Below, piece after piece: positions 15,405 to 37,574 of a DNA stretch of 64,000 nt. Source of the DNA: Candidatus Cloacimonadales bacterium (lineage in GTDB: Bacteria; Cloacimonadota; Cloacimonadia; Cloacimonadales; DAONDQ01); NCBI GenBank assembly GCA_963662275.1, contig OY759316.1, forward strand, positions 2,880,001 through 2,944,000, read 5' to 3'. Positions within the stretch are counted from its first letter, which is position 1. Every line of letters starts with the position of its first letter. The position numbers and the translations under genes were made by a program. The notes under the pieces were generated by a model. That model was not told where the DNA came from. It did no database searches and worked only from the letters and a program-made list of their open reading frames with translations.

Positions 15405-18400
15405 GTGAAAAAGCTACTTATATTTTTGTTAGTTTGTCTTTGTTTGTCTATTTCTATATATGCCCAGAATACCTATGACTTCATCATTGGTGCCGATGCT
15501 ATAGTGAATGGACCTTATGGCTTAGATGTACTGCCGATAATCAAGGATGCTAATTATAATTGCTTAGAAGCTGTTAATTTTAACCATAATGATTTTCCAG
15601 CTATATATAACGCTCTCATGAAAAATGGTTTCAAAGCTAATGTGAATGACCGATTGGATTATGACTTAAATGGAGGCAGAGGCATCGAATTCCTCACCAG
15701 CAGTAATTATTTCCGGTTTGAATCGGAATATAGTACTGTGAATACGGAAGTGAACCTGGGTGATTTGAATGCAGATACTCTTTTTTATCGCTTTCAAAGA
15801 GATGCTGGGCATGTGGGTTTATTTGATCAAAATGTATCAAATAAACGATCCTGGGTTTGTGATTATAATCCAGTCAACGATAGCACCTGGAAGGTCATCT
15901 CCGGTGACATGTACTGGCGCTGGTATTCACCGCCTGATACGCATGACTTTGATTGCGTCTCGCATATCTGTAAATTCAGCAAGGATTGGAACGGTAATAA
16001 TAACGATTACATACAGCAGCAATATCTTAATGACGATAGTCTGTACATCAGTATTGCCCTGAATTGGACGTCCTTGCCGGATACTTCTTCTCATTATAAT
16101 GATGAATTAATTCAGATCGATTTCTTTGGTTATAATTACAGAGCACCTGATGTGAATGATGCGGATGCGGACACCTTACATAATATCAACTTCCAGGGAT
16201 TTCATGGTAAATATTCTACGACTCTCAAGATCTCGGACTGGCGGTTTGGAACACAGATACTCAATACTGATTTCCGAACCTTCACTTATGGCATCAGTTT
16301 AGCAGAACTTGACAAGCCAATACAAAATTCACCAGTCACTTTACTGGGAGGCAGATATGCTTTAGATTATCTGGTTCCTATCATTAAGTGGAATCAGAAT
16401 CATACAGTATCACTGGACTATATAGAATACGAGGATAACATCCATCGCAAGATGCGGGATCAAAACATACTTGATGCATGGATTGCTGAAAGATTAGAAG
16501 ATCAGTATTCTAGTTACCCGCAAACCAGCATCTTATCCTATATGGGTGTGAATGAGGCATATTACGGCAATTTTGATTCGTGCAAGCGTGTAAATGACTA
16601 TCTCATACATTCAGCATCTCCAGCAGCCCATCCATTGGTTACCAATTATATTCCGGGGTATAATGGGCTGTTTGAGAGAAAAAAAGCCAATGGTAAAAGC
16701 TTCTCCTTAACGAAAGTCTTCAACACTAAAGCAAAACCGTCGATTCAGAAATTTCATTATTATCCCATTCGATATAATACCAGTTTTAATGATACGACCA
16801 GCAGCACTTTTATCCAAAAGAATTTAGATACCATGCTGGAGAAATATCAGTTTGCCAAGGAAACGGGTTTACCATTCTATCCGGTAGTCCAGACTTATGG
16901 GGATTGGGACATTAATGATCAACAATGGTGGGGAGCTATGTATCCGGATTCAACATCACAAAAATGTCTGCAATATTTGCCTTTATGCTACGGACCTTCA
17001 GGTATCCTCAATTATACCGTTTATAAAGGTGATAATAAGGAACCGGCACTGATTAATCCAGATGGTTCACTAGCGCCTAATTACAATATAATCAAGGCAG
17101 CAAATAAGAAAATTGAAGTCTATGGACCTTATGTTAAGCAAAATGGAGCCTGGTATGGGTCTGAATGTATAAAGACACCATTAACATCCTACCCTGATTT
17201 TTCTATTGCAGGTCACCCTGGTCAGCGGTTAATGGATATCAGCTTGCCTTTTCCAGACTCTACAAATAATGATATATATGATGGTTATATTCAATGCGGT
17301 TACTATCATACTGGTCAGGATAATTATTATATGCTGGTTAATCGGAGAACATCTCGGGTCTTCAATAGTGCAATTCCTTTAACAACCGCTTATACAGATT
17401 ACGAAAACACCTATGCTCCGTATGGTCCGCAGACTGTCAGGTTTTCACTTCTCCAGAATGCACGCAATCTGTATGGTTCTAATCCGGGATTATATGATCC
17501 CTATTCTCACGATCTCCGGATGCTTACAAATGATTATATTGATATAACATTGCAGCCAGGAGATGCAAGCCTTTGGCAGCTTGTAAGTGTCTTGCCACCA
17601 AGTATAAACACAAATTACACAGCAACTCGTGATGTTTGCATGCAGGGAGATTTGCATATTAACGATGGTGTGAGCGTTACCATCCCGGCAGGGAAAACCT
17701 TAAATATCCTGGAAAGTGGAAGAATTTATGTTACTGATTGTTCATCTCTCAATATAGAGGGTAACCTCACGGCAAATGCCTTTAGTAAAATCTATGTGTC
17801 CCAGGGAAGTTCATTACATATCAGCAATGCCACTTGTAACATGGGTGATTCCACATTGATCAAAATAAGCGATGGTAATTTAGTAATGTCACATTCCACT
17901 TTTCAAACAAAAAATGGGACTATCTGGTACGGTTTTAATTGCCTGCGAAGTACAATCACTGTTGCTGATTGTGACGCTTATAATGCTAAAACAGCAATTG
18001 AACTGAATGCTACGAGTTTCAACATGGTGAACAGTAAACTATATGTTCCCGCATATGGAACAGGAATCTGCATTACTGCTCGTAATTCAACAGATGCTGT
18101 GAATCTTATCGGTTTTGAGGATAATACAAATCTCATAAAATGCATTGCAACGCCAAACACTCATTCAACTGGAATCTCAATGAAAAGCCGAGAAAATCCA
18201 CTTAGCTGTAATTGGTCAATCTTCGAGAATCTGGCAACAGGAATTGATTATTCTTTGTCTGTTGATAAAGCAGATTCTGTATCCAATTGCACATTTAATG
18301 GTTGTAATACAGGAATTTGCGTAACCGGTAGCGAAGGTTTAGAAAAAATAAGAGAATGCAAATTTACGATTCAAATTTCTCAAAAGGGAATAGACACAAG

Positions 18401-19847
18401 CACATATATTCCGCTTATTGATAAGTGCGAATTTTCCTCTACTCACGCAACTTCTTCTGCTGGGATATATCTTGATTTAGCCCAAGGTGGTTATCTTATG
18501 AATCTTGAAAATCGGGTGAGAGAAAATATCAGGAATTGCAAATTCACAGGTTTATACAAAGGAATTGAGAGCCGGGTTTCATCTGCAAGACTGAAAGAAA
18601 ACGAGTTTACTCTGAATACCATGGGTATTCTGATTCGGCAGAACTCATTTATTGATTGCAGTGATAACGCTAAAAATTCTTTTCGTAACACACAAGCTAA
18701 TTTTGCACTATATCCTATTAATTCTATTGTTGTAGATTCAGCATTTTATACTATTCAGCTAATAGCAGGGCATAATAATATTTATCATGACTTTCACTTA
18801 TGTAATGATTTTCTCTTTAATATTTCTGATCCGACACAGATAAATTCCGGTACTATTGATGCTTCCGGTAATTTTTGGGCAGAAACAATAGGCTCTCATA
18901 CTGATTACACTGCAAAGGTATACCCCAGAACCCCATTATTCGCTCATGTAGTTGATGTAGGTATTTGTGATACCCTTCCTAATGTTCCAGATCTACAAAA
19001 TGCTATGATCATGCCTCAGAACAGATATGAAGAAGCCCTTTCTTTGGAAGAGTTAGGAGATTTTACAGTTGCTTATATGCTTTACAGGCAGATATTGAGT
19101 GACCAGTTAATTGAAGAAAAGGACTTCTGGGGTTTCTGCGTACCAAGCATCTATCGAATTGCAAAAAGCTGTAATCTTGATATGAATGAATTAATAATGA
19201 ATTATGACATGGAACTTGCAGATACTTCAATGGTTGATCAACAACAACTGATGTACCTGATCAGGTCATATATTGTGAATGCCTATTTATCGGAAAATGA
19301 TTATCAGTCAGCAGCAGATCTCATCAGTGAAAGAATTAATAAGCCTATTTCTGAAATAGATTCCCTGAATGCTGTCTTGGACTTGGAAATTGTATATATG
19401 CTGCGTGATTTGGATGTTTCCAAAAAACCATTAACAACTATGTACTCCCGGTATCATTATCCTGATCTTCCGACATACAAAATCAAGCATGAGGATAACA
19501 GGTTAAAGCTGGAAGCCCTGATGAACAAATTACTGGAAAATGGAGAAGAAACGCCGTCCCCTATCCCGACGGCTGTATTTTTGAACAGGAATTATCCGAA
19601 CCCGTTCAATCCCACGACCACGATAGAATTTGGAGTACCTAAAGCAACGAAGGTATCGATCAGGATTTACAATATCCGTGGGCAGCTTGTGAAAGAGCTG
19701 GTGAATCAGAAATATGAACCGGGTAAATTCAAAGTCGTATGGGAAGGTAAAAATTCATTTGGCAAACCTGTAGCAACAGGTGTGTATTTCTATCGCCTGG
19801 AGGCAGGAGGTAAGTGCTTTACACATAAGATGCTGATGCTGAAATAG
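15405..19847 (+). CDS. Large secreted protein with beta-helix-like region and T9SS/FlgD-Ig CTD
   Basis: GTG start after AAGGAGG; signal peptide; repeated xCxFxxxxxGI motifs; NYPNPFNPTTTI...IYNIRGQLVK...GVYFYRL...KMLMLK. Confidence 0.8.
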   Translation: MKKLLIFLLVCLCLSISIYAQNTYDFIIGADAIVNGPYGLDVLPIIKDANYNCLEAVNFNHNDFPAIYNALMKNGFKANVNDRLDYDLNGGRGIEFLTSSNYFRFESEYSTVNTEVNLGDLNADTLFYRFQRDAGHVGLFDQNVSNKRSWVCDYNPVNDSTWKVISGDMYWRWYSPPDTHDFDCVSHICKFSKDWNGNNNDYIQQQYLNDDSLYISIALNWTSLPDTSSHYNDELIQIDFFGYNYRAPDVNDADADTLHNINFQGFHGKYSTTLKISDWRFGTQILNTDFRTFTYGISLAELDKPIQNSPVTLLGGRYALDYLVPIIKWNQNHTVSLDYIEYEDNIHRKMRDQNILDAWIAERLEDQYSSYPQTSILSYMGVNEAYYGNFDSCKRVNDYLIHSASPAAHPLVTNYIPGYNGLFERKKANGKSFSLTKVFNTKAKPSIQKFHYYPIRYNTSFNDTTSSTFIQKNLDTMLEKYQFAKETGLPFYPVVQTYGDWDINDQQWWGAMYPDSTSQKCLQYLPLCYGPSGILNYTVYKGDNKEPALINPDGSLAPNYNIIKAANKKIEVYGPYVKQNGAWYGSECIKTPLTSYPDFSIAGHPGQRLMDISLPFPDSTNNDIYDGYIQCGYYHTGQDNYYMLVNRRTSRVFNSAIPLTTAYTDYENTYAPYGPQTVRFSLLQNARNLYGSNPGLYDPYSHDLRMLTNDYIDITLQPGDASLWQLVSVLPPSINTNYTATRDVCMQGDLHINDGVSVTIPAGKTLNILESGRIYVTDCSSLNIEGNLTANAFSKIYVSQGSSLHISNATCNMGDSTLIKISDGNLVMSHSTFQTKNGTIWYGFNCLRSTITVADCDAYNAKTAIELNATSFNMVNSKLYVPAYGTGICITARNSTDAVNLIGFEDNTNLIKCIATPNTHSTGISMKSRENPLSCNWSIFENLATGIDYSLSVDKADSVSNCTFNGCNTGICVTGSEGLEKIRECKFTIQISQKGIDTSTYIPLIDKCEFSSTHATSSAGIYLDLAQGGYLMNLENRVRENIRNCKFTGLYKGIESRVSSARLKENEFTLNTMGILIRQNSFIDCSDNAKNSFRNTQANFALYPINSIVVDSAFYTIQLIAGHNNIYHDFHLCNDFLFNISDPTQINSGTIDASGNFWAETIGSHTDYTAKVYPRTPLFAHVVDVGICDTLPNVPDLQNAMIMPQNRYEEALSLEELGDFTVAYMLYRQILSDQLIEEKDFWGFCVPSIYRIAKSCNLDMNELIMNYDMELADTSMVDQQQLMYLIRSYIVNAYLSENDYQSAADLISERINKPISEIDSLNAVLDLEIVYMLRDLDVSKKPLTTMYSRYHYPDLPTYKIKHEDNRLKLEALMNKLLENGEETPSPIPTAVFLNRNYPNPFNPTTTIEFGVPKATKVSIRIYNIRGQLVKELVNQKYEPGKFKVVWEGKNSFGKPVATGVYFYRLEAGGKCFTHKMLMLK

Positions 19848-24459: not shown

Positions 24460-25356
24460 TTATCCATTTGGCAACTTGGCATGTTTTTCCGTGATTTTGA
24501 ATCTTTCTTTAAACAAGATATATCCATCCTCGAAAGTGCAGGGAAAACCAATGAAGGAATCCATCATTAAACCTATGGGGCATCTTTTGAAATAGAGCAT
24601 TGCTCTTTGCAGCAGATGCTCATCTTTTTCACCGTTATACAGATCGAAAACACGATTGGTGAAATCAGTTCCATAGCATAATAAGCTGGCAAAATCTATT
24701 GCCGGGTCTCCGTATGAACAATCTGAAAAATCTATGATATTAATTTGTTTCTGCTTAGAATCCCACAGTATATGCTCATCTGTCAGGTCATTGTGAACAA
24801 GTGATTTAGAATAGATATAATCAAGAGAGCCTTTTAGTTCAGTAAAATATTCTTCGATTAACTGTATATCTTCTTTTGCTAACTTGGGTAGAAGTATCTT
24901 TCGGATATCTCGAAGAAATGCATCATAATGTTTCTTTGGATCACCAATTTCTATCTTGCACCTGTTTATTATTTCTCGTGGAGTCGCATGAAGAGTGTTT
25001 ATAAATTCAGCAATTTGTTTAGCTACCGATTCTTTATCCGTGATAGTTAATCTCTTGAATAGGGAAACATTAAGCTCCTTGCCTTTTAAAATATCATAGC
25101 CGGCGAGAGAATGATCTTTTGAGAAAAATCTATATTCAGGAATACTGACCTTGAGTTTGGGTTTCAGATAATTCAGTAATTCAATTTCACTTGTGAAGTA
25201 ATTTTGATAATGCACATCCTTTGAAGCACGGATGACTATCTTTTCATCAAGAATAATAACGTCATGATCCCAACCATTAGTTAGATATTGATAACTTTTC
25301 CACTCGATTTCAGGAAATTCGTCTCTGATTCGTTGTAAGTAGAAATCAATTTTCAT
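24460..25356 (-). CDS. APH/choline-kinase-family phosphotransferase
   Basis: GWDH, LVHNDL..EHIL and IIDFSD...GDPAIDF motifs. Confidence 0.85.
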   Translation of the reverse strand: MKIDFYLQRIRDEFPEIEWKSYQYLTNGWDHDVIILDEKIVIRASKDVHYQNYFTSEIELLNYLKPKLKVSIPEYRFFSKDHSLAGYDILKGKELNVSLFKRLTITDKESVAKQIAEFINTLHATPREIINRCKIEIGDPKKHYDAFLRDIRKILLPKLAKEDIQLIEEYFTELKGSLDYIYSKSLVHNDLTDEHILWDSKQKQINIIDFSDCSYGDPAIDFASLLCYGTDFTNRVFDLYNGEKDEHLLQRAMLYFKRCPIGLMMDSFIGFPCTFEDGYILFKERFKITEKHAKLPNG

Positions 25357-27080
25357 AAAATACTACCATCTAAAGCTTTTTTTCCTTCAGCGAGTACAAA
25401 ATACATCTTCATTTTCCCCTTGCCTTTGATCTCAGATTCAGAACGTTCTTCACAAATGAAATCATCCTTGATTAGCTGGTACACATCTTCGCTGATGTTG
25501 ATATAATTCACTTCTGAATTTGATTCCATTCGACTGGCAGTATTGATAGTATCACCAAATACATCGTAGATATACTTCTTGATACCGACAATTCCTCCAA
25601 CCACAAAGCCAGTATGCATGCCGATGCGGATATTCCATTTTCGCTCATTGTTTGAATTTCTTTCCTCAAGGTATGACAATATTCCTATGGCAACTTTGGT
25701 CATTCTGATAGCATGGTCAGGTTGTGTGATAGGTAAACCGCAAACGGCAAGATATGCATCTCCAATTGTCTTAATACGTTCACAGCCAAATTCTTCCACA
25801 AGGTTATCGAAAGCTGTAAATATCTCTGAAAGATCTGCTATCAACTCTGCGGGGTCAATCGTGGAAGACATATTTGTAAAGTTCGCAAAGTCGGAAAACA
25901 ATACAGTTACATTCTTGAAAGTCTGAGGCGTAGCTTTACCAAATCTTTTCAGTTCCCTGGCAACTTGGCGAGGAAGGATGTTGAGTAAGAGCTTCTCTGA
26001 TTTGCGTTTTTCCTTCACAATAAAGAAAGTTGCTATCAAACCTAACAGGATAAAGGCAACCAATCCTGCTAGCTGCATTCTTTGCTTCTGAAGATTCAAT
26101 CTGAGTATGCGATTTTCCAATTCTTGCTTCTCAACGGCAAATTGCGTTTGCAGGTTAGCAATATTACGGTTGGTTTCTTCATTGGAAAGGCTATCTCTTA
26201 CGTCTGTATAAAGCTTATAAAACTGAAGCGATTTTAAAGTATTACCCTGCTGCTTATAAATCAGATAACGGTTAAAATAGATATCCCTGGCAACACTAGG
26301 TGCACCAACTTTACGAGAAAGCGTATAAGCTTCATTATAATAATCCAGGGCTGTTGGAATGTTCTGCTTCAATTGGTACAAATATCCTACAATAAGAAGG
26401 TTGACTGCCACTCGCATATCATCATTGTTTGAACGATACAATGCCAATGACTGAAGATTATAGACCAGTGAAGAATCGATTTCTGATTGCATGAGGAAAT
26501 AATTTCCAATATTGTTGAGAGAGTGTGCCTCACCTTCAGTATATTTTACTGTTCTGCACAAAGTAAGAGCTTGTTGATAATAATTATATGCCTTAACAGG
26601 ATTTTTCAGATAATGCAAAGTGAAAATACCTATGTTATTCAACGCATCTGCCAGAGCTTTCTTATCACCCGATTGCCGTCTCAGTTGAAGTGATTGGGTA
26701 AAGTATTCTTTTACTTTATCACCGCTTTGCAGCCTTAAGTAAATATAGCCCATCTGTTCTAAAGCATCTGCCTTACCCTTATTATCATGCGTTGCTTCAA
26801 ATCCCTGTAGTGCCTGGTGACATCGTTCCAGAGCCTTATCATTGGCACCGGCTTTAAAATATCCCTTTGAAAGATAAAGCTGTGCCTTTGCTACTGCATT
26901 GGTATTGTTCTCTTGCTGTGCCAAGAGCAGTGCTTTCCCGGCATAATCCATAGCTTTATCAACAGATTGCTTCAGATTTTGATCTGCCAAAGTTAACAAT
27001 CCGCTGATTTCAGAAGATTTGTCAGCAGTTAAAAACAGACAACGACATAGTAATAGACAGATAAGCAAGTATTTATTCAT
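25353..27080 (-). CDS. Membrane-anchored class III adenylate/guanylate cyclase with extracytoplasmic TPR repeats
   Basis: Signal peptide, TPRs, one TM segment, LLLNILP, VLFSDFANFT, KTIGDAY, YDVFGDTINTASRMES. Confidence 0.92.
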   Translation of the reverse strand: MNKYLLICLLLCRCLFLTADKSSEISGLLTLADQNLKQSVDKAMDYAGKALLLAQQENNTNAVAKAQLYLSKGYFKAGANDKALERCHQALQGFEATHDNKGKADALEQMGYIYLRLQSGDKVKEYFTQSLQLRRQSGDKKALADALNNIGIFTLHYLKNPVKAYNYYQQALTLCRTVKYTEGEAHSLNNIGNYFLMQSEIDSSLVYNLQSLALYRSNNDDMRVAVNLLIVGYLYQLKQNIPTALDYYNEAYTLSRKVGAPSVARDIYFNRYLIYKQQGNTLKSLQFYKLYTDVRDSLSNEETNRNIANLQTQFAVEKQELENRILRLNLQKQRMQLAGLVAFILLGLIATFFIVKEKRKSEKLLLNILPRQVARELKRFGKATPQTFKNVTVLFSDFANFTNMSSTIDPAELIADLSEIFTAFDNLVEEFGCERIKTIGDAYLAVCGLPITQPDHAIRMTKVAIGILSYLEERNSNNERKWNIRIGMHTGFVVGGIVGIKKYIYDVFGDTINTASRMESNSEVNYINISEDVYQLIKDDFICEERSESEIKGKGKMKMYFVLAEGKKALDGSIL

Positions 27081-27336: not shown

Positions 27337-27626
27337 CAAAATATTACATGTGCAAGTTAAGTCTCTTTTCAAGATTCTACCGTGAATGATCTGCCCCCGT
27401 AGAGCCAGTTAAAACTATATTCTAGCACTGAACAAATCTGTGGATGAGTGAAAGTCCAAACAGTTCTAACAATACTGTGAAAACAATTTGTATGCAATCA
27501 CAAAAAATATATTTTTAATTCTTGACTTAAAATAATAACATAGGTAAATACTGAATCATATTCATTTATTAAATCCTATGTGGGTTTTATACAATTATGA
27601 CTACAATAACTACCGGGAGGTGTTGT

Positions 27627-30600
27627 GTGAAGAACATTCTTTGTGTTTTGGTTTTCATTATTTTGTGTTGTATGAATTGCTTCTGTTTTGGCGCGAATAA
27701 GGTCTCAAAAACTAATTTGTCAAATCATAAACAAATAGCCATTCCACAAATAGGACAATTCAATAAAACAGATTTCAGGGATGCAAATCCCCCTAGTGAT
27801 GTAACGATTTCTGTCAATGCAGGGATTGTCACTTTATCTTGGTCAGCAGTTTTTAATGCTGCCAGTTATAAAGTAGAAGCTTCGAATACAAATAATCGAG
27901 GTTTTACTGATGTTACTACATCGGGGACATTCAATATTCAAACCGGCATTATTAGTTGGTCAAAATCTGTTACGGAAGATTATGCATTTTTTAGAATTAG
28001 ATCTTTTACCAGTCCGATTCCAAGTAATTTTGTTTTGGTTCAGCGCGGTACTTTTTTTAATGGAACATCTGATGTGACAATTTCATCATTCTATATGAAT
28101 AAATATGAAATTACACAGTCTGAATTCATGGCTGTAATGGGGATGAATCCCTCAAGTTATTATGGGATTTATGGAATAGGAGATGATTTTCCCGTTTACA
28201 ACATCACTTGGGCAAATGCAATCGTTTATTGCAACAAGAGAAGTATTAGCGAAGGATTGACTCCATGTTATAGCTATACAGAACCATATGATGGAACAAA
28301 TTATGGGTCAAATCCCACTAGTTGGCCAACGGATTGGTATTTGGAGGTTTGGATTCCTGAGACCCCCCCTATACCTTCATATTCGTATCAGAAATCCTGG
28401 GGCTTAGCATGTAATTGGGAAGCAAATGGTTATCGCTTACCAACAGAAATGGAGTGGATGTTTGCTGCACGAGGAGGAAATTTATCTCATGACTATTTCT
28501 ATAGTGGAGGAAATGAAATAGATTCTGTTGCCTGGTGGGGAGGAACTAACTTTGGAGGTAATTCTTCTGATTCGATACATGTAGTAGGAACAAAATCTCC
28601 AAATGAACTGGGTCTCTATGATCTGAGTGGTAACGTTAATGAATGGTGTTGGGATATGTACGATATCTATCCAGCAGGAGCACAAGTCAATCCCCATGGA
28701 CCGACATTGCAGAATACTCGTGTCTTCCGAGGTGGTTGCTGTGAAAGTGCGGCATCGAATTGCTTAGTTTCATATCGTAATGACAATTCAATCGATGGAA
28801 ACGTTTCTGAAATCGGCTTCCGAATCTGTCTGAATGATCCAAATACGGTCCTGCCTCCCACGTTTTCTCCTGTTACAGGGACATACTTAATTCCCCAAAA
28901 TGTGAGTATTACTTCAAATACTTTCGGTGCAACTATTCGCTACACAATCGATGGTTCTACACCTTCTACCACAACTGGCATGATTTACAGCTCTCCTATC
29001 CTGGTGGATCATACACTTTCGATCAAAGCAATTGCATATAAAAGCGGATATACTACTTCCGAAATAACCAGTGCTTTGTATACGATCAATCTCACAGTAA
29101 CGAAACCGACCTTCTCTCCTCCCGGCGGACAGTATAGCAGTTCCCAATCAGTTAGTATCATATGTCCGATTACTGGGGCTCAGATCAGATATACGACAGA
29201 TGGCAGCAATCCTACTGAAAGCTCGAGCCTGTATCAAAATCCTATTAGTGTGAATCAGTTCACGACCATTAAAGCCAAGGCATACAAAACGGGATGGACT
29301 GCATCTCAAATATCGACAGCAGTCTATACATTCAGTTCTGACTTTGCGCTTGTGACAGGGGGCATCTATAATACTGGATTGGGCACCATTACTGTTCCAA
29401 GTTTCTATGTGGAAAAACATGAAATTACTAAAGATGAATATGAAGCTATTATGTTTTACAGTTCCTCTGTTTTCACTGGAGTTCTTAATGGACCTGTAAA
29501 TAATGTCACATGGTTCAACGCAATTGAGTATTGTAATAGAAGAAGTATTCAAGAAGGACTTACTCCTTGCTACAGTTTCAATAATGGAACAGATTATGGA
29601 ACGAATCCTTCCTATTGGCCTCTGGATTGGAACCAGGAATGGTATGAAGAAGGATATTCTGAAGTCCGTAATTACTCCATGTATGTGTTATGCAATTGGA
29701 ATGCCAGTGGTTATCGTCTTCCATCAACTTCTGAATGGGTTTTTGCATCCCGTGGTGGAAACCTGACTCATAATTATTCCTTCAGTGGAAGCAACACAAT
29801 TGGAGATGTTTCCTGGTATCTAACGAATTCCATTAACACAACACATAGTGTAGGCTTAAAAACAGCCAATGAGCTTGGCATATTCGATATGTCGGGCAAC
29901 GTCTGGGAATGGTGTTGGGATGCATATTTTGATGAAATGAACATGACTCCCAGTATGGGTGAAAGTCATTATCTTGAAGGTGGAAGCTGGAATAGCGAAA
30001 GCTACAACATGTATTCATCTTGGGATAATGCTTTGAGTTATAATAATTATTCCGGTTTCAGGATATACCGTCGCGATCCTAATATGGTGGCAATTCCATC
30101 ATTTTCACCTGCCGGAGGGGCATACTCGAGTACACAGACAGTAAGTATCTCATGTACAATTCCCGGAGTACAGATACGTTATACAACCAATGGTACAGAA
30201 CCAACTGAATCCTCTTCACTATATAATTCAGCACTCACGATTTCTCAGACGACAATCTTAAAAGCAAGAGCTTTTAAATCAGGTTTTACACCTTCGGAAA
30301 TCAAGGCAGCAGGATATGTAATTGGTTCTCCATCCTCACAAATGGTAACAGTTACGGGAGGAACATTCAACAACGGATTTGAGGATGTCACAATCTCTAC
30401 TTTCATGATGAATAAATATGAAGTTTCTCAAGCTTCATTCCTGGCAGTGATGGGATATAACCCATCGTATTGTTATGGTGTCAGTGCCAACTATCCCGTT
30501 TATTACATCACCTGGTTCAATGCAATTGAGTATTGCAACAAACGCAGCATAACTGAAGGTTTGACTCCTTGCTATCGTTTTAATAACGGTACTGATTATG

Positions 30601-33600
30601 GTACTGATCCAAACAACTGGCCTTCTTCATGGACAGCTATGTGGAATATGCCTGGTATGTGGTTTCCAAATAATAATTCGACTAGCATATTTTATAATTC
30701 CCTGGCGAACGGTTATCGCTTGCCCTCTAGATCTGAATGGATGTTTGCTGCACGCGGTGGGAACCTGACTCATAATTATACATACAGCGGCAGCAATACC
30801 ATTGGAAATGTAGCCTGGTATAGTACAAATTCAAGTTCTGCAGTTCACCAGGTAGGGACAAAAACAGCAAATGAGCTTGCTCTCTACGATATGACAGGCA
30901 ATGTAAGCGAATGGTGCTCAAATAATCCTGATTATGATCCTTTGATGCCTCCGTGGATCATGTGGGAAGAATATCAATACAGCCGTAATATCGTAGGTGG
31001 CAGTTGGAGTAGCCCTGATACAGATTGTGCAGTAGCTTCACAACTCGGCTACAGCCATACTTCATATACGTCAAATTCATATGGCTTCCGGGTTTGCAGA
31101 TTTGAATTCGAAACAGTTGCCCCACCTGTGCTTTCTCCTGTTGGTACAACCTATAACAATACCCAGTCTGTATCCATCTCTACAGCAACAATCGGTGCAA
31201 CAATACGATATACAACGAATGGATCAACACCTTCCACGACCGTAGGTACGATTTATAGCAGTCCGATTAGTGTTACAACCAGCCAGACCATCAAGGCTAT
31301 AGCTTATAAAACCGGTTGTATAACTTCAACAATAGCCTCAGAGACCTATAGTTTAGTAGTTGATGTACCTGTCTTTTCTCTTCTGCCGGGAACCTACCTT
31401 TCTTCACAGACTACCACTATCACGACCAACACTACGGGAGCATCCATCAGATATACTACTGATGGTTCAACACCAACTTCTACAACAGGCACTCTTTATT
31501 CATCTCCTATCAGTATCAATTCGAGTCAAACAGTGAAAGCCATTGCCTATAAAACCGGTATGGTCTCATCAAATGTAATCTCTTCTGTATATACAGTAAA
31601 CCTGACAGTTAGCAGCCCTACTTTTTCCCATGCCAGCGGTGCTTATACGAACGCTATTACGGTGGCTATCAACTGTTCTACTTCCGGGTCTACGATTAGA
31701 TATACTCTCGATGGCAGTGAACCTACCATTTCATCTCAACAAAGTTATGGTTCAGTTTACATAAATGCTACTCGAATCCTCAAAGCAAAAGCTTTTAAAA
31801 CGGATTGGACCGCTTCTGCAACTTCCACAGCTCTATATTCTTTTATTAGCTCTCAGTCGGAAATGGTCTATATCGCAGGGGGAACATTCAATAATGGTAC
31901 ATCGAATGTCACATTATCTTCCTTCTATATCGATAAATATGAATGCACCCAGGTTGATTATCAATCAGTCATAGGCAGTAATCCTTCATCACAATTTGGA
32001 ATTGGATCGAATTATCCTGCTTACGGTATGGGATTCAGGGGAGCAATTGAATATTGTAATAAGCGTAGCATCATTGAAGGTTTGACACCATGCTACAGTT
32101 ACAGTACTTATGGCACAGCTACAAGTAGCTGGCCTTATAATTGGTGTTATGAGGCGAACCATGTCAATCTAAGCTGCAATTGGACAGCCAATGGTTACAG
32201 GTTACCGTCTGAAATGGAATGGATGTATGCTGCCAGGGGTGGGAGTTCAACCCATAATTACACTTACAGTGGAAGCAATGATGTAACAGCGGTGGGCTGG
32301 TGTTACCCTTATGCGGCGAATACAACACATACAGTTGGTTCTAAAAATTCGAATGAACTTGGGCTATATGATATGACGGGGAACTTGAGTGAATATTGTT
32401 GGGATATCTGGTCTGAAACATATCCTAGTGGTCAACAAACAAATCCGCATGGACCTGCTTCTGGTACGACAAGAGTAGTTCGAGGTGGAAATTTCGATTA
32501 TGAGCCAGTGTTTTCTACTGTTTCTTATCGAGATTATAGCAGTACTGATGCAGGATCTTCAAACTACGGTTTTCGTCTTTGCAGAACCTCTGTATCCATA
32601 CCTATGCAACAGCATTTTACCAGGGTAGAAGGAGGTACTTTCAATAATGGAGCTTCAGATGTTACTTTATCACCTATCCTCCTCGATAAATACGAAGTAA
32701 CACAATCATCATACCAGTCAATAATGGGAAGTATCCCCTCTACTTCGTATGGGAACGGTTCGGATTATCCTGTATATGGTGTTTCCTGGTTCAATGCATT
32801 TGAATATTGCAATAGAAGAAGTTTGAGTGAAGGTTTGATTCCATGCTACAGTTATCGAACTTACGGAACAAACCCGAACACTTGGCCCACCGGATGGAAT
32901 TCTAGTGGTAATAACTTCACATATTTTACCTGTAACTGGGAAGCGAACGGTTATCGTTTACCTACTGAAATGGAGTGGATGTTTGCAGCCAGGGGTGGTA
33001 ATCTTACACAAGGTTATACTTACAGTGGCAGCAATAATATAAATACCGTAGCATGGTATAACTCCAACTCTAGCTATGCAACTCATATTGTGGGATCGAA
33101 AACAGCGAATGAATTGGGGTTATACGATATGAGCGGAAATGTCAATGAATGGTGCTGGGATTCATACGGCAGTTATCCTTACGGACCTCAAACCAATCCT
33201 CACGGAGCAACAGATGGATACTATCAGGATTACCGTATTCTTCGCGGTGGAGGATTTGATGGCTCAAGTACAAGTTGTACAACAAGTTATAGAAGCTACA
33301 ATCTTGCTTATTACACTAACTTGTATGGCTACAACTATGGTTTCCGTATCTGTAGGAATGCACCATCTCAAATCGTTGCTACACCAACTTTTAACATGGC
33401 TGCAGGTATTTATAACAACGCGATTGATGTGAGCATCAGTTGTTCAACACCTGGTGCCAGTATCTACTATACAATCAATAATTCACTTCCTACAGAAAGC
33501 TCGATGCTTTATCAAAACCCGGTAACAATCAGCCAGACTACATACCTCAGGGCAATAGCATTTAAGACAGGATGGACACCTTCAGAGGAAAAACATGAAT

Positions 33601-36600
33601 CGTATAACCTGACCATAGCAACTCCTACTTTTTCTGTTGCCGGTGGTGTCTACACAAGTACTCAGACTGTTAATCTACAGACAGTGACAACCGGTACTGA
33701 AATCCGCTATACAACGAATGGCAGTGAACCCACCGAGACATCGTCTCTCTACACAAATCCGCTCAGTATTTTTCAAACTACCACGTTAAAAGTAAAAGCC
33801 TATCGTACTGGCTGGAATCCTTCTTCTACAGCAACTGCCATCTATACAATCAATAACTTAGTCCTTGTCGATGGCGGTACCTTTAATAATGGCACTTCGA
33901 ATGTGACAGTGAGCAGTTTCTATCTGGATAAGTACGAACTAACACAAGCTGCCTATCAGGCTGTGATGGGTACGAATCCTGCTTCAAGCTATGGTGTAGG
34001 CAGTTCATATCCCGTATATTTTGTATCTTGGTTCAATGCTATAGAATATTGTAACAAGAGAAGTATCTCCGAAGGACTGACTCCCTGCTATAGTTACAGC
34101 ACTTATGGCACAAATCCGACAGCATGGCCTTCCGGCTGGAATACCAGTGATGACAACCATACCAACGTGACTTGCAACTGGACAGTAAATGGATACAGAC
34201 TTCCAACTGAAGCGGAATGGGAATTTGCTGCACGAGGCGGTAATTCAACCCATGGTTATACCTATAGCGGTAGTAATACCATTGACGGGGTAGCGTGGTA
34301 TAGTTCAAATTCAAGCAGCATTTCACATGTCATTGGTTCCAAAGCAGCAAATGAGCTTGGTATCTATGATATGAGCGGTAACGTCTGGGAATGGAATTGG
34401 GACATTTATGGCACCTATCCCAGCGGATCGCAAAATAATCCGCATGGAGTAGTCAGCGGGTCTGCCCGTGTGTTACGTGGCGGTTGCTGGGCAGACGTTA
34501 CTGGCGGCTGCGCTAGTTCCTTTCGGAACCATTTCAGTGCGTCTTCCGGCGCTGGCACTATAGGCATCCGCATCTGCAAGAATGTACCTGCTCCGCCAAT
34601 ACAGGAATCCTATGTGTTGGTGGATGGTGGTACTTTCAACAACGGTACATCCGATGTTGCTTTATCATCCTTCTATATGTATAAGACGGAACTCACTCAA
34701 TCTTTATATCAAACTGTGATGGGAACTAATCCAGCATCAGGGTATGGAGTCGGAAACGATTATCCTGTATATAATGTTAACTGGTTTAAAGCCATAGAAT
34801 ACTGTAATAGACGGAGTATTAACGAAGGACTGACTCCGTGTTACAGTTACAGTACATATGGTGGAAATACTGCTAACTGGCCTTCTGGTTGGAACACAAG
34901 TAACTCTAACCATACGAATGTATCTTGTAACTGGACTGCTGATGGATATCGTTTACCTACAGAAATGGAATGGCAATTTGCAGCTCGAGGTGGTAATCTG
35001 TCACATAATTATACATATAGCGGTAGTAATACTCTCAATTCAGTAGCTTGGAACTCTTCAAACGCACCATACACAACCCATTCTGTGGGAACACTAACTG
35101 CAAATGAACTTGGCATCTATGATATGAGTGGTAATATTTGCGAATGGGTGTGGGATATATACGATAATTATCCAAGCAGTACTCAGATTAATCCACATGG
35201 TCCAACAAGTGGTCTTTACCATGTCCAGCGCGGAGGAAGTTGGGGTTTTTATCCTGAAAATTGTGCAGTTTCATCTCGAGTTGTCAACAATCCCACAGAC
35301 AGTAACTACTTTCTTGGTTTCCGTCTCTGCCGCAGCATCCCAGCACCACCTGTATTGGAAAGCTATCTTCCGGTACCTGGCGGTACTTTCAACAACGGCA
35401 CTTCAGATGTGACAATATCATCTTTCTCTATAAGCAACTATGAAGTGACTCAATATGCCTACAAGTTAGTCATGGGTACAAATCCTTCCTATTTCAGCAA
35501 TGATTTGAACAAACCCGTTGATTCCGTTACATGGTTCAATGCCATTGAATATTGTAATCGGAAAAGCATCAGTGAAGGATTAACTCCGTGTTACACGTAT
35601 ATTGGTTATGGTACAAATCCTTCAAGTTGGCCTTCCGGGTGGAATACCAGTAACGCCAACCATGTTTACATCTCCTGCAATTGGGCAGCATTTGGTTATC
35701 GTCTTCCTACTGAAATGGAATGGCAGTTTGCTGCAAGAGGTGGTACATTAACAAATAATTATTCCTATGCCGGTAGCAACACTATAGATGCTGTTGCCTG
35801 GTATCTCACTAATGCCGGTAATTACACTCACCAGGTTGGAACAAAAGCATCTAATGAACTTAGTCTGTATGATATGAGCGGTAACGTCTGGGAATGGAAT
35901 TGGGATATTTATGGCACATATTCCAGCGGACTGCAAGCTAACCCTCATGGCGTCGTCAGCGGGTCTGCCCGTGTAGTACGCGGCGGTAGCTGGACAGACG
36001 TTCCCGGCGGTTGCACAGTTTCCGGTCGGAACAGCCTCAATGCGACTGACATCGGTCCCAATATAGGTTTCCGTATCTGCAGGATCATGCCAATCCAAAA
36101 TGCATTGATTTCCGTACCTGGCGGAACATTCAATAATGGAACTTCGGATGTGACGATCTCAACATTCTCAATGGAAAAATATGAAACAACTCAAACAGCT
36201 TATCAAGCTGTCATGGGTAATAATCCTTCTTATCGGACGAGTATAGCCAATGGACCTGTCGAGCAGGTTACATGGTACAATGCTATCGAATATTGCAACA
36301 GGAGAAGCATCAGTGAAGGTCTGACTCCCTGCTATAGTTACAGCACTTATGGTACAAATCCTTCGAACTGGCCTGCTAATTGGAATGCAGTTGTTAACAT
36401 TACGAATTTAACGTGCGATTGGGCAACAGCCAATGGTTATCGGTTACCTACTGAAATGGAATGGCAATTCGCTGCCCGTGGTGGTAACCTGACGCATAAT
36501 TACGCATATAGCGGGAGCAATACTGTGACTACGGTAGCTTGGTGTAATTCAAATTCCGGAAGCACAACACATACTGTTGGAGATAAGCTCCCGAATGAGT

Positions 36601-37574
36601 TAGGTTTATATGATATGAGCGGTAATGTCATGGAATGGGTATGGGACAAATATGCAAGCACTTATCCCAGCTTTAATCAGTTTAATCCCCATGGACCGAG
36701 CACAGGGGAAGGAAGAATATATAGGGGAGGCGGTTATATGATTTCTGATACCCAATGCCAGGTTACATTACGTAGCTACGATTATGAAGCTAGTTGGTCA
36801 TTTTACATGGGCTTCCGTGTCTGTAAAAATAACCCGAGTTTTGTATTTGTTCCGGGTGGTACGTTTAATAATGGCACTTCTAATGTGACAGTATCAGATT
36901 TCAAGATGGAAAAATGGGAAGTTAGGCAGGCTGACTACCAAGCAGTAATGGGAACGAATCCAGCATATGATTATGGAGTCAGCAGCAATCATCCTGTGCA
37001 CTACGTGTCATGGTTCAATACTGTTGAGTACTGTAATAAACGCAGCATACAGGAGGGATTTACACCTTGTTATAGCTATGGAACTTATGGTACTAATCCT
37101 TCCAGTTGGCCTTCCGGGTGGAATACATCAAATGATAATCATGTGAATGTGAATTGCAATTGGATGGTGAATGGTTATCGTCTTCCCACAGAAGCTGAAT
37201 GGGAATTCGCTGCAAGAGGTAGTAATCTAACCCATAATTATATTTATAGTGGTAGTAATACGATTGATAATATAGGATGGTATCAGTCAAATTCTGGTAA
37301 TACTAGCCATATTGTTGCAACCAAAACTGCCAATGAACTTGGCATTTATGATATGACCGGGAATGTATGGGAATGGTGTTGGGATATATATGATACTTAC
37401 CCAGCAAATTCACAGACGAATCCTCACGGAGCAATTTCAGGGATATACCGTATTAATCGTGGTGGAGCTTTTTCAAATGTGGATTACGGTTGTACAATAG
37501 CCAATAGGAATTACGGATCGGCAACTATTAATCACAATTACTATGGATTCCATATCTGTCAGAATGCACAATGA
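27627..37574 (+). CDS. Giant surface protein: 10 FGE-sulfatase (CLec-fold) domains and 8 CHB_HEX_C/Fn3-associated spacer domains
   Basis: Ten units of GGTFNNG...YExTQ...GYRLPTExEW...NELGxYDMSGNVxEW...RGG...GFR. Eight units of PTFS...IRYTxDGxxP. GTG 27627 follows the RBS GGGAGG (the ORF track starts at 27597). Confidence 0.9.
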   Translation: MKNILCVLVFIILCCMNCFCFGANKVSKTNLSNHKQIAIPQIGQFNKTDFRDANPPSDVTISVNAGIVTLSWSAVFNAASYKVEASNTNNRGFTDVTTSGTFNIQTGIISWSKSVTEDYAFFRIRSFTSPIPSNFVLVQRGTFFNGTSDVTISSFYMNKYEITQSEFMAVMGMNPSSYYGIYGIGDDFPVYNITWANAIVYCNKRSISEGLTPCYSYTEPYDGTNYGSNPTSWPTDWYLEVWIPETPPIPSYSYQKSWGLACNWEANGYRLPTEMEWMFAARGGNLSHDYFYSGGNEIDSVAWWGGTNFGGNSSDSIHVVGTKSPNELGLYDLSGNVNEWCWDMYDIYPAGAQVNPHGPTLQNTRVFRGGCCESAASNCLVSYRNDNSIDGNVSEIGFRICLNDPNTVLPPTFSPVTGTYLIPQNVSITSNTFGATIRYTIDGSTPSTTTGMIYSSPILVDHTLSIKAIAYKSGYTTSEITSALYTINLTVTKPTFSPPGGQYSSSQSVSIICPITGAQIRYTTDGSNPTESSSLYQNPISVNQFTTIKAKAYKTGWTASQISTAVYTFSSDFALVTGGIYNTGLGTITVPSFYVEKHEITKDEYEAIMFYSSSVFTGVLNGPVNNVTWFNAIEYCNRRSIQEGLTPCYSFNNGTDYGTNPSYWPLDWNQEWYEEGYSEVRNYSMYVLCNWNASGYRLPSTSEWVFASRGGNLTHNYSFSGSNTIGDVSWYLTNSINTTHSVGLKTANELGIFDMSGNVWEWCWDAYFDEMNMTPSMGESHYLEGGSWNSESYNMYSSWDNALSYNNYSGFRIYRRDPNMVAIPSFSPAGGAYSSTQTVSISCTIPGVQIRYTTNGTEPTESSSLYNSALTISQTTILKARAFKSGFTPSEIKAAGYVIGSPSSQMVTVTGGTFNNGFEDVTISTFMMNKYEVSQASFLAVMGYNPSYCYGVSANYPVYYITWFNAIEYCNKRSITEGLTPCYRFNNGTDYGTDPNNWPSSWTAMWNMPGMWFPNNNSTSIFYNSLANGYRLPSRSEWMFAARGGNLTHNYTYSGSNTIGNVAWYSTNSSSAVHQVGTKTANELALYDMTGNVSEWCSNNPDYDPLMPPWIMWEEYQYSRNIVGGSWSSPDTDCAVASQLGYSHTSYTSNSYGFRVCRFEFETVAPPVLSPVGTTYNNTQSVSISTATIGATIRYTTNGSTPSTTVGTIYSSPISVTTSQTIKAIAYKTGCITSTIASETYSLVVDVPVFSLLPGTYLSSQTTTITTNTTGASIRYTTDGSTPTSTTGTLYSSPISINSSQTVKAIAYKTGMVSSNVISSVYTVNLTVSSPTFSHASGAYTNAITVAINCSTSGSTIRYTLDGSEPTISSQQSYGSVYINATRILKAKAFKTDWTASATSTALYSFISSQSEMVYIAGGTFNNGTSNVTLSSFYIDKYECTQVDYQSVIGSNPSSQFGIGSNYPAYGMGFRGAIEYCNKRSIIEGLTPCYSYSTYGTATSSWPYNWCYEANHVNLSCNWTANGYRLPSEMEWMYAARGGSSTHNYTYSGSNDVTAVGWCYPYAANTTHTVGSKNSNELGLYDMTGNLSEYCWDIWSETYPSGQQTNPHGPASGTTRVVRGGNFDYEPVFSTVSYRDYSSTDAGSSNYGFRLCRTSVSIPMQQHFTRVEGGTFNNGASDVTLSPILLDKYEVTQSSYQSIMGSIPSTSYGNGSDYPVYGVSWFNAFEYCNRRSLSEGLIPCYSYRTYGTNPNTWPTGWNSSGNNFTYFTCNWEANGYRLPTEMEWMFAARGGNLTQGYTYSGSNNINTVAWYNSNSSYATHIVGSKTANELGLYDMSGNVNEWCWDSYGSYPYGPQTNPHGATDGYYQDYRILRGGGFDGSSTSCTTSYRSYNLAYYTNLYGYNYGFRICRNAPSQIVATPTFNMAAGIYNNAIDVSISCSTPGASIYYTINNSLPTESSMLYQNPVTISQTTYLRAIAFKTGWTPSEEKHESYNLTIATPTFSVAGGVYTSTQTVNLQTVTTGTEIRYTTNGSEPTETSSLYTNPLSIFQTTTLKVKAYRTGWNPSSTATAIYTINNLVLVDGGTFNNGTSNVTVSSFYLDKYELTQAAYQAVMGTNPASSYGVGSSYPVYFVSWFNAIEYCNKRSISEGLTPCYSYSTYGTNPTAWPSGWNTSDDNHTNVTCNWTVNGYRLPTEAEWEFAARGGNSTHGYTYSGSNTIDGVAWYSSNSSSISHVIGSKAANELGIYDMSGNVWEWNWDIYGTYPSGSQNNPHGVVSGSARVLRGGCWADVTGGCASSFRNHFSASSGAGTIGIRICKNVPAPPIQESYVLVDGGTFNNGTSDVALSSFYMYKTELTQSLYQTVMGTNPASGYGVGNDYPVYNVNWFKAIEYCNRRSINEGLTPCYSYSTYGGNTANWPSGWNTSNSNHTNVSCNWTADGYRLPTEMEWQFAARGGNLSHNYTYSGSNTLNSVAWNSSNAPYTTHSVGTLTANELGIYDMSGNICEWVWDIYDNYPSSTQINPHGPTSGLYHVQRGGSWGFYPENCAVSSRVVNNPTDSNYFLGFRLCRSIPAPPVLESYLPVPGGTFNNGTSDVTISSFSISNYEVTQYAYKLVMGTNPSYFSNDLNKPVDSVTWFNAIEYCNRKSISEGLTPCYTYIGYGTNPSSWPSGWNTSNANHVYISCNWAAFGYRLPTEMEWQFAARGGTLTNNYSYAGSNTIDAVAWYLTNAGNYTHQVGTKASNELSLYDMSGNVWEWNWDIYGTYSSGLQANPHGVVSGSARVVRGGSWTDVPGGCTVSGRNSLNATDIGPNIGFRICRIMPIQNALISVPGGTFNNGTSDVTISTFSMEKYETTQTAYQAVMGNNPSYRTSIANGPVEQVTWYNAIEYCNRRSISEGLTPCYSYSTYGTNPSNWPANWNAVVNITNLTCDWATANGYRLPTEMEWQFAARGGNLTHNYAYSGSNTVTTVAWCNSNSGSTTHTVGDKLPNELGLYDMSGNVMEWVWDKYASTYPSFNQFNPHGPSTGEGRIYRGGGYMISDTQCQVTLRSYDYEASWSFYMGFRVCKNNPSFVFVPGGTFNNGTSNVTVSDFKMEKWEVRQADYQAVMGTNPAYDYGVSSNHPVHYVSWFNTVEYCNKRSIQEGFTPCYSYGTYGTNPSSWPSGWNTSNDNHVNVNCNWMVNGYRLPTEAEWEFAARGSNLTHNYIYSGSNTIDNIGWYQSNSGNTSHIVATKTANELGIYDMTGNVWEWCWDIYDTYPANSQTNPHGAISGIYRINRGGAFSNVDYGCTIANRNYGSATINHNYYGFHICQNAQ

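Follow-up and report, generated by a model that had tools for sequence, protein, structure and literature searches.

A giant FGE-sulfatase protein of a Cloacimonadales bacterium probably carries fossil DGR variable regions in two of its internal modules

Background

Some isolates of Treponema denticola lack the reverse transcriptase (RT) and template repeat (TR) of a diversity-generating retroelement (DGR) and yet retain target genes whose mismatches to the TRs of relatives fall mostly on adenines; the relevant passages of the paper describing these leftovers explain them by loss of the DGR (Nimkulrat et al. 2016, PMC4891356). For Nostoc sp. PCC 7120, parts of another study describe all3226, a paralogue with remnant homology between TR and variable repeat (VR); in the view of its authors, the paralogue dispersed and the components of diversification were afterwards removed (Vallota-Eastman et al. 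2020, PMC7517822). The RTs of the DGR clade bear the motif [LIV]GxxxSQ (PMC3575424). A literature search joining DGR, variable repeat, paralogs and loss yielded no paper, and the terms searched in Roux et al. 2021 (PMC8144416) led to no passage about FGE or the loss of DGRs.

Here we analyze a 64,000-nt stretch of the genome of a Candidatus Cloacimonadales bacterium (the window), in which an earlier note, made from the sequence alone, had seen a DGR-like signature in two internal FGE domains of a giant protein. We conclude that FGE domain 6 and FGE domain 8 probably each have a fossil DGR variable region as their C-terminal ~126 nt. The DGR reading of these tails is supported as history and not as current activity: because the DGR is active in related bacteria and absent here, the tails read as frozen relics of a known system.

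Results

The giant protein and its modules

The protein (Table 1) holds ten FGE-sulfatase and eight CHB_HEX_C_1/Fn3_assoc stretches. PF03781 matches it over the ten stretches with a whole-protein E of 0 and 1124.7 bits, a significant family match, and domain 6 covers positions 4-253 of the 255 in the profile; by sequence, the FGE domains are predicted to have the C-type-lectin fold. The parse into ten FGE stretches also bears out the assignment of the two tails to domains 6 and 8. No Por_Secre_tail was found in the giant ORF. An exact-sequence cluster look-up showed the protein to be absent from the protein collection, and a DNA search with positions 33800-36200 found no orthologue of the gene in 30 relatives (best identity 70%). 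The genome as a whole shows an expansion of FGE domains, with 48 Pfam matches, and the body of domain 6, tail left out, is 78% identical in amino acids to the product of a stand-alone orphan-VR gene at G000:C1:3951849-3952967 of the same genome.

Table 1 Features of the giant gene and its FGE domains 6 to 8 (window coordinates)
Feature	Position	Strand	Remarks
Giant ORF, 3325 aa	27597..37574	+	N-terminal hydrophobic signal-like segment; FGE-sulfatase and CHB_HEX_C_1/Fn3_assoc modules
FGE domain 6	33855..34574	+	Pfam PF03781 match
Domain 6 tail, probable fossil VR	34455..34580	+	Gapless homology to DGR template/variable repeats of relatives
14-codon core, domain 6	34521..34562	+	Sits on second AAY cluster of relatives' TRs
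FGE domain 7	34614..35330	+	Tail more decayed, 27/85 non-adenine mismatches vs best TR
FGE domain 8	35370..36080	+	Pfam PF03781 match
Domain 8 tail, probable fossil VR	35958..36083	+	Continues into domain 9 linker; no stop, no 3' flank
14-codon core, domain 8	36024..36065	+	Codon comparison with domain 6 core

The two tails compared with each other

The segments 34452-34580 and 35955-36083, both in frame with the giant ORF, align without gaps as had been claimed, with 97 of 129 positions identical, and the ten differing codon pairs listed in the earlier note are all present. The 14-codon cores differ at 16 nucleotides, seven at codon position 1, eight at position 2 and one at position 3. This retention of the third base, on which the earlier note had leaned, is real as a count and is not significant alone: the core shows third-position differences at 1/14 and the remainder of the 249-nt repeat shared by the two domains at 18/69 (~0.09 by a binomial calculated by hand). 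The pyrimidine endings of the differing codons, also emphasized there, are likewise present and, being general in the FGE tails of this genome, are no evidence by themselves. Among the 41 of 45 FGE domains that were parsed, 777 of 1056 tail codons (0.74) end in a pyrimidine, and outside the tails the fraction is 0.61; at four-fold sites the fractions are 0.63 and 0.57.

When sites are classified by the TRs of relatives, the 42-nt cores of domains 6 and 8 differ at 14 of 22 TR-adenine sites and at 2 of 20 others (Fisher p = 0.0004), and over 126 nt the differences fall on 18 of 39 consensus TR-adenine sites as against 13 of 75 never-adenine sites (p = 0.0017). Divergence at adenine sites, 46%, also exceeds the 20% (7/35) at non-adenine third positions, taken as the near-neutral rate (p = 0.026).

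The shared 249-nt stretch (79% identity) begins 116 nt upstream of the TR-homologous part, and domains 6 and 8 may therefore be duplicates of one module. Identity between them is 83% at non-adenine tail sites and, upstream, 79% over 150 nt and 71% over 600 nt; with upstream identity nearly as high, there is no sign of template-driven homogenization of the two tails, unlike the stand-alone pair 3951858/3646020, where the corresponding values are 92% and 76%. Furthermore, the pair is not exceptional within its own genome, ranking 22nd of 990 tail pairs in the fit of a model with A at variable sites to real TRs, and the excess of differences at such sites is partly confounded with ordinary diversifying selection. 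The signal of domains 6 and 8 is strong only once it is anchored on the real template repeats of relatives.

DGR cassettes in the same order

Of 151 genomes of the order, 24 gave an RT match at E <= 1e-40 when probed with the Brt of phage BPP-1, the matching ORFs being 332-570 aa long (31-40% identity, E down to 4e-54). The single congener in this set carries no DGR RT. The RTs of these relatives bear VGNLTSQ or IGNLTSQ, and the cassettes (genomes G003, G073, G083 and others) comprise an FGE target, an HRDC-like ORF, Avd, an RT with [LIV]GxxxSQ and a TR. In G003 the order is FGE target with VR, a 146-aa ORF, Avd, a 344-aa RT (VGNLTSQ/YMDD) and TR, with 19 of the 25 positions that differ between TR and VR being A-to-N. 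Used as a blastn query, the G003 TR matches 18 of 20 RT loci, 12 of them with two copies, one TR-like and one VR-like.

Ten cognate VR/TR pairs show mismatches at 16-25 of ~41 adenines and at 1-6 of ~85 other sites, and VRs compared with non-cognate TRs of the same DGR family show 5-22 non-adenine mismatches. Because four VRs of G073 lie within 3 non-adenine mismatches of one TR, DGRs of this family can be said to serve several remote targets. Nine VR-like copies were inspected in genomes G073 and G050; all of them, like the VR of G003, stand at the 3' end of a gene and are followed by a stop codon and a conserved flank; real targets end in CRVSP and stop, and then run into a T-rich ...CCTTTTTGCC... 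flank.

The tails anchored on the templates of relatives

The TRs of relatives align without gaps with the tails of both domains. Against L032, the best TR for each, domain 6 mismatches at 30 of 41 adenine and 17 of 85 other sites (p = 1e-8) and domain 8 at 22 of 41 and 15 of 85 (p = 6e-5), and these non-adenine mismatches fall within the range of bona fide VRs compared with non-cognate TRs. Scaffold codons (RGGSW, C-T-V-S, R-N, A-T, I-G-F-R) are common to the TRs and both tails at the nucleotide level, and the variable codons fall on AAY codons of the TR. The G083 TR has 16 AAN codons; among these, positions 1-2 are altered in 15 cases in domain 6 and 13 in domain 8, and the third base of the template is preserved at 13/16 in each, as compared with 12-15/16 in true VRs and a mean of 5.3/16 in the 23 most diverged tails of the same genome.

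The AAY-rich template reconstructed in the earlier note from the two tails proved close to real ones, matching the TR of G083 (L026) at 42 of 45 positions and that of G073 (L032) at 41 of 45 (hand counts on the alignment); a mechanical model with A wherever domains 6 and 8 differ reaches 38/45 and 37/45 against the two TRs. That note had also held that its reading would fall if template and RT were missing from the genome and its relatives alike, and it does not fall on this count because relatives have both.

Among relatives, domain 6 is matched best, with 70% nucleotide identity, by the DGR target of G003, which lies ~1.2 kb from the RT. A tree built with the tails left out places domains 6, 7, 8 and 10 in a 36-row clade (SH-aLRT 85) with nine of ten type-1 DGR targets; the tree is weakly resolved, with 28 of 52 inner branches open and weak support within the clade. 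Domains 6 and 8 keep the CR(I/N)xP end and then continue into the next module, and the stop and 3' homing flank of real targets are absent at both. The divergence at non-adenine sites, ~17-18% from the best TR and 13/75 between domains 6 and 8, indicates that the template that wrote the tails is unobserved and that the event is old.

The genome of the window and its other FGE tails

The genome, a single contig, is 99.97% complete and holds 18 RT loci, 17 of the group II intron type (QGxxxSP) and one Cas6-RT-Cas1. No DGR RT was found in it, Brt and two DGR RTs of the order reaching only those 18 loci, at 24-30% identity. Whole-genome blastn with both tails and five real TRs gave, among the matches listed, no non-coding adenine-rich copy; those listed for the L026 and L032 TRs were FGE tails only, with an A fraction of at most 0.33. 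The earlier note had proposed such a search with its two segments, which returned only other FGE tails and no non-coding template, and its statement that the window lacks an RT and a template repeat extends to the complete genome. The HRDC-like ORF of relatives has no match in this genome.

Two FGE fragments (G000:C1:615264-615689 and 1700913-1701380), truncated beside identical 433-aa transposase ORFs, were rejected as TRs, being coding FGE remnants with an A fraction of ~0.2. Also rejected, as DGR remnants, were four strong stand-alone Avd-like genes (PF05635), which are only 26-27% identical to the Avd of G003 and have no RT within 10 kb.

Two stand-alone genes are near-pristine orphan VRs, with 6/85 and 8/85 non-adenine mismatches, and four stand-alone genes retain the 3' flank of the targets of relatives. 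No DGR remains were found around the two best orphan-VR genes; one of the two has an RT 3.5 kb away, which is of the group II intron kind and not a DGR RT.

Population variation

Assembled contigs, which drop rare variants, show 0 differences in both tails for runs X1 and X3 of two studies (34373-35897 and 35879-36350), and 0 differences in the domain 6 tail for X4 (34373-35523) and X5 (34373-34741). One of these runs may be the source of the assembly. The comparison draws on covered stretches only and leaves aside depth values and the many joints between paralogous modules.

Discussion

The earlier note had offered two alternatives, diversification in trans and capture of fixed DGR products, and it is the second that fits; the first does not because there is no DGR RT or TR, no 3' flank and no difference between contigs. 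On the favored account, an ancestor or donor would have had a DGR of this order's family, which by adenine-specific error-prone reverse transcription and retrohoming would have rewritten the tails with which single-domain FGE/C-type-lectin surface proteins bind their ligands. Differently written modules would then have been joined one after another to make up the giant protein, losing the stop codon and the 3' homing flank; later the cassette would have been lost and the tails would have drifted by ordinary mutation (~17% at non-adenine sites). Each module would now probably be a fixed binding site of distinct specificity.

A different order of events, in which a now-lost resident DGR rewrote domains 6 and 8 in situ when they were already internal and the cassette was lost later, appears unlikely. 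It would explain why the 249-nt repeat extends 116 nt upstream, as expected of one duplicated module, with the 18/39 adenine and 13/75 other differences arising as if rewriting had followed duplication, and remote targets are served by DGRs of this family, as by that of G073 with its four VRs and one TR. Homing in BPP-1, however, needs a 3' cis element, and every VR inspected, the nine of G073 and G050 as well as that of G003, is terminal in its gene with stop and flank, features that domains 6 and 8 do not have; moreover, the body of domain 6 is nearer to stand-alone genes (78% in amino acids, G000_3951858) than to its sister modules.

It is less probable still that no DGR was ever involved and that the tails are the hypervariable ligand-binding loops of FGE/C-type-lectin paralogues, shaped by point mutation and diversifying selection, with the TRs of relatives being merely copies of such tails. 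Such a history would account for pyrimidine endings as a general property of FGE tails in a DGR-free genome, for a third-position deficit short of significance in the core and for a non-adenine divergence of about 17-18% from every TR. It fits poorly with AAN codons that have positions 1-2 replaced in 13-15 of 16 cases and the third base kept in 13, as in true VRs and not as in diverged tails, or with a divergence at adenine sites in excess of that at third positions. Also, members of this gene family have demonstrably been rewritten by a DGR in relatives, and the genome itself holds the two near-pristine orphan VRs.

Present diversification of the tails in trans, by a DGR that this organism would carry on an unassembled plasmid or phage, is scarcely credible, even though DGRs can reach remote targets and their RT, Avd and TR can act in trans according to passages in PMC5758913 and four stand-alone Avd-like genes are present, given a complete chromosome with no DGR RT or TR, Avd-like genes of low identity far from any RT, tails identical in contigs of two studies, non-adenine mismatches far above those of serviced VRs and the missing 3' flank.

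Within the reading of the tails as fossil VRs, we raise tentatively, and as somewhat doubtful, the view of the giant protein as a 'frozen library' in which C-type-lectin modules, each written by a DGR to a binding specificity of its own, were serially captured into one 3325-aa surface protein before the retroelement was lost; somatic-style hypermutation would therefore have fed germline domain accretion. In a bolder sub-case, the DGR of this lineage could have homed into internal modules that lack the usual 3' flank.

These findings suggest that a DGR history can be recognized after loss of the retroelement by anchoring suspect tails on the template repeats of related genomes, and that lectin-fold modules written by a DGR can persist, in fixed form, in the interior of a very large multi-module surface protein, besides forming C-terminal tips. 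They bear on the hard-wiring of DGR-generated specificities and on the expansion of FGE domains in the order. The mechanism is not new, since orphaned DGR targets have been published, and the internal position of the VRs is the sole unusual feature.

The prototype system of Bordetella phage BPP-1 (mtd-avd-TR-brt) shares with this locus the principle of adenine-specific rewriting of a C-type-lectin-fold tail; it is a phage tail-fibre system with a Mtd-type fold, and none of its machinery is present in the genome of the window. The multi-target DGRs of the order are alike in their ungapped TR alignment, in scaffold codons shared at the nucleotide level and in the placement of AAY codons, and differ in being complete, with C-terminal VRs that carry at most 6/85 non-adenine mismatches and a 3' flank, whereas this genome is without machinery. 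Like the tails described here, all3226 of Nostoc, as far as the cited parts of that study describe it, represents a dispersed paralogue of a DGR variable protein with TR-VR homology and no RT nearby; the Nostoc genome still holds its DGR, unlike this one, and the Nostoc proteins, most of them cytosolic kinases, carry a single lectin domain at the C terminus, in contrast to a tandem array. The TvpA family of Treponema, judging from the passages cited above, has in common with this locus FGE-sulfatase/C-type-lectin-fold surface proteins with adenine-biased mismatches whose RT and TR are gone. The Treponema leftovers are stand-alone proteins with a C-terminal VR, whereas the tails here, without a stop or 3' flank and with more non-adenine drift, belong to internal modules 6 and 8 of ten.

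Adenine-biased divergence between the d6 and d8 tails

The giant ORF contains ten FGE-sulfatase (PF03781) stretches, d1 to d10, and eight CHB_HEX_C_1/Fn3_assoc stretches (Table); no Por_Secre_tail sorting domain was detected in the protein. The tails of d6 and d8 align without gaps at 97/129 identity and form the terminal part of a 249-nt direct repeat with 79% identity. Realignment of the 14-codon core (34521-34562 versus 36024-36065) confirmed the pattern described in the earlier note, including every codon pair listed there, with the 16 differences distributed over first (7), second (8) and third (1) codon positions. As signs of a diversity-generating retroelement (DGR), however, two of the features that it stressed are weak when taken alone. 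The third-position counts are correct, but 1 of 14 such positions differs in the core versus 18 of 69 in the rest of the repeat (hand-calculated binomial, about 0.09). Likewise, pyrimidine-ending codons are present but typify FGE tails throughout the genome, at 777/1056 (0.74; tails parsed in 41 of the 45 FGE domains) versus 5164/8437 (0.61) for the remainder of the domains, and 0.63 versus 0.57 at four-fold sites.

Using consensus template repeats (TRs) from relatives, d6 and d8 were found to differ at 18/39 TR-adenine sites versus 13/75 never-adenine sites (p = 0.0017), or versus 7/35 when non-adenine third positions alone are counted (p = 0.026); within the core, the contrast is 14/22 versus 2/20 (p = 0.0004). 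This enrichment is partly confounded with selection, because the TR adenine codons occupy surface positions where the fold is naturally variable. By fit to real TRs, the pair ranks 22 among 990 tail pairs in the genome, and its non-adenine identity (83%) barely exceeds the 79% found over the preceding 150 nt.

Table. Features of the window and of its own genome (G000:C1)
Feature	Location	Strand	Remarks
Giant ORF, 3325 aa	window 27597-37574	+	
d6 tail, 6th FGE domain	window 34452-34580	+	in frame
d8 tail, 8th FGE domain	window 35955-36083	+	in frame
FG-GAP proteins and 1480-aa protein	window 11775-13421, 13637-15295, 15405-19847	+	each with Por_Secre_tail; upstream of giant ORF
TPR-adenylate/guanylate cyclase	window 25353-27080	-	upstream neighbour, opposite strand
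Stand-alone FGE gene (G000_3951858)	G000:C1:3951849-3952967	-	near-pristine orphan VR; 6/85 non-adenine mismatches, G083 TR
Stand-alone FGE gene	G000:C1:3646011-3646904	-	near-pristine orphan VR; 8/85 non-adenine mismatches, G083 TR
FGE genes with T-rich flank	G000:C1, ends 3646020, 4326434, 4247363, 3762538		
Group II intron-type RT loci (examples)	G000:C1:724066-725463, 754380-755714		
Cas6-RT-Cas1-like fusion ORF, 896 aa	G000:C1:3092718-3095408		RVT_1
Avd-like four-helix-bundle genes (four)	G000:C1:4057914-4058228, 1305744-1306058, 1265377-1265691, 4195650-4195955		PF05635, E down to 4e-43

Real templates in the same order

Reverse transcriptases (RTs) resembling Brt of phage BPP-1 (E <= 1e-40) occur in 24 of 151 genomes of the order, and are absent from the only congener in that sample. 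One relative, G003, has a complete cassette consisting of an FGE target with its variable region (VR), a 146-aa ORF, Avd, a 344-aa RT (VGNLTSQ, YMDD) and a 144-nt TR; 19 of the 25 TR-VR mismatches are A-to-N, and the target gene is the top match of d6 among relatives (70% nt identity). This VR (G003:C1:1384000-1398000, reverse strand 5812-5955) has an in-frame TGA exactly where the TR has AAA; the retroelement, in this assembly, wrote a stop into its own target. By blastn, the G003 TR matches 18 of 20 fetched RT loci; 12 of these contain two matches, one TR-like and one VR-like. In ten cognate VR/TR pairs, mismatches number 16-25 at about 41 adenines and 1-6 at about 85 other sites. Four VRs on four contigs of G073 each have at most three non-adenine mismatches to a single TR, and a second RT type in G007 accompanies two C-terminal VRs, so DGRs with several FGE-protein targets are commonplace in the order. 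Besides that single TR, the G073 loci (L058, L063, L068, L070, L072, L073, L074) hold two further TR-like copies, the second frame-shifted and the third partial.

Both tails, from 34449 (d6) and 35952 (d8), align without gaps to all relatives' TRs examined. The 45-nt template proposed in the earlier note matches the G083 TR at 42/45 and the G073 TR at 41/45, counted by hand on the TR alignment, which supports its DGR-type template; a mechanical model placing A wherever d6 and d8 differ scores 38/45 and 37/45. Against its best TR, d6 mismatches at 30/41 adenine and 17/85 other sites, and d8 at 22/41 and 15/85; true VRs compared with non-cognate TRs of the same family have 5-22 non-adenine mismatches. 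The G083 TR has 16 AAN codons; at these, positions 1-2 are replaced in 15 (d6) and 13 (d8), while the exact third base is kept in 13/16 in each, compared with 12-15/16 in true VRs and a mean of 5.3/16 in the 23 most diverged tails of the genome. In a phylogeny from which the tails were omitted (55 rows, after exclusion of two short fragments), d6, d7, d8 and d10 fall in a 36-row clade (SH-aLRT 85) with nine of ten type-1 DGR targets, and d1-d5 and d9 fall outside; resolution within the clade is poor.

A genome without a DGR

The genome, a single 4.38-Mb contig rated 99.97% complete, is without a DGR. The RVT_1 profile found 18 RT loci: 17 of group II intron type (QGxxxSP) in two families, with ORFs of 459-465 aa (11), 444 aa (six) and 412 aa (one), and the Cas6-RT-Cas1-like fusion ORF. 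Probing with BPP-1 Brt and both DGR RT types of the relatives returned these loci alone, at 24-30% identity. Blastn of the whole genome with both tails and the relatives' TRs yielded no non-coding adenine-rich copy, other FGE tails being the sole matches. The four Avd-like genes are unlinked to any RT or FGE gene and share only 26-27% identity with the DGR Avd of a relative. Two C-terminal FGE fragments (G000:C1:615264-615689 and 1700913-1701380; open frames of 142 and 156 aa) were rejected as TRs; these truncated coding remnants, each 0.2-2 kb away from transposase-like ORFs of 433 aa that are identical to one another, are apparently FGE genes cut by an insertion sequence.

The genome's clearest orphan VRs lie outside the window, in the two stand-alone genes of the Table, which have no RT, TR or Avd nearby. 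These VRs differ at 23/39 adenine sites versus 6/75 others, although identity over the 600 nt preceding them is only 76%; it looks as though both were rewritten from one template, now gone.

Origin of the internal tails

In G073, G050 and G003, all VR-like copies inspected are gene ends, '...CRVSP' followed by a stop and a conserved T-rich ...CCTTTTTGCC/AAAATGC flank that may be a homing cis element. Four stand-alone FGE genes of the present genome keep this flank; three other orphans have in common a different downstream repeat of about 60 nt. The d6 and d8 tails retain the CR(I/N)xP end, with a sense codon at the stop position, and read on into the next module. This pattern, together with a d6 body closer to stand-alone G000_3951858 (78% aa) than to its sister modules, favours modules already written by a DGR and then fused into the giant protein. 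Rewriting of d6 and d8 in situ, by a DGR since lost, would accommodate the 79% identity that begins 116 nt before the part homologous to the template, and we regard it as unlikely. Continuing diversification in trans, one of two origins offered in the earlier note, is not supported, given a genome without a DGR and non-adenine divergence of 17-18%, far above that of serviced VRs. Assembled contigs agree to a limited degree, since they do not show rare variants and the assembly may derive from one of the runs: contigs of runs from two studies show no difference from the window across both tails, and those of two additional runs match it across the d6 tail. The other origin, fixed DGR products, is supported. 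The tails of d6 and d8 are thus probably fossil VRs, carried in internal positions of a protein with ten modules.

Orphaned VRs are already known, and only the position is unusual here. Remote targets and action in trans are treated in a review (PMC5758913), and an account of Nostoc includes a dispersed paralogue with remnant TR-VR homology (PMC7517822). Treponema denticola isolates lacking RT and TR retain leftover target genes whose mismatches to relatives' TRs lie mostly at adenines (PMC4891356); d6 and d8 share with these leftovers both the adenine-biased mismatches and a genome devoid of RT and TR.
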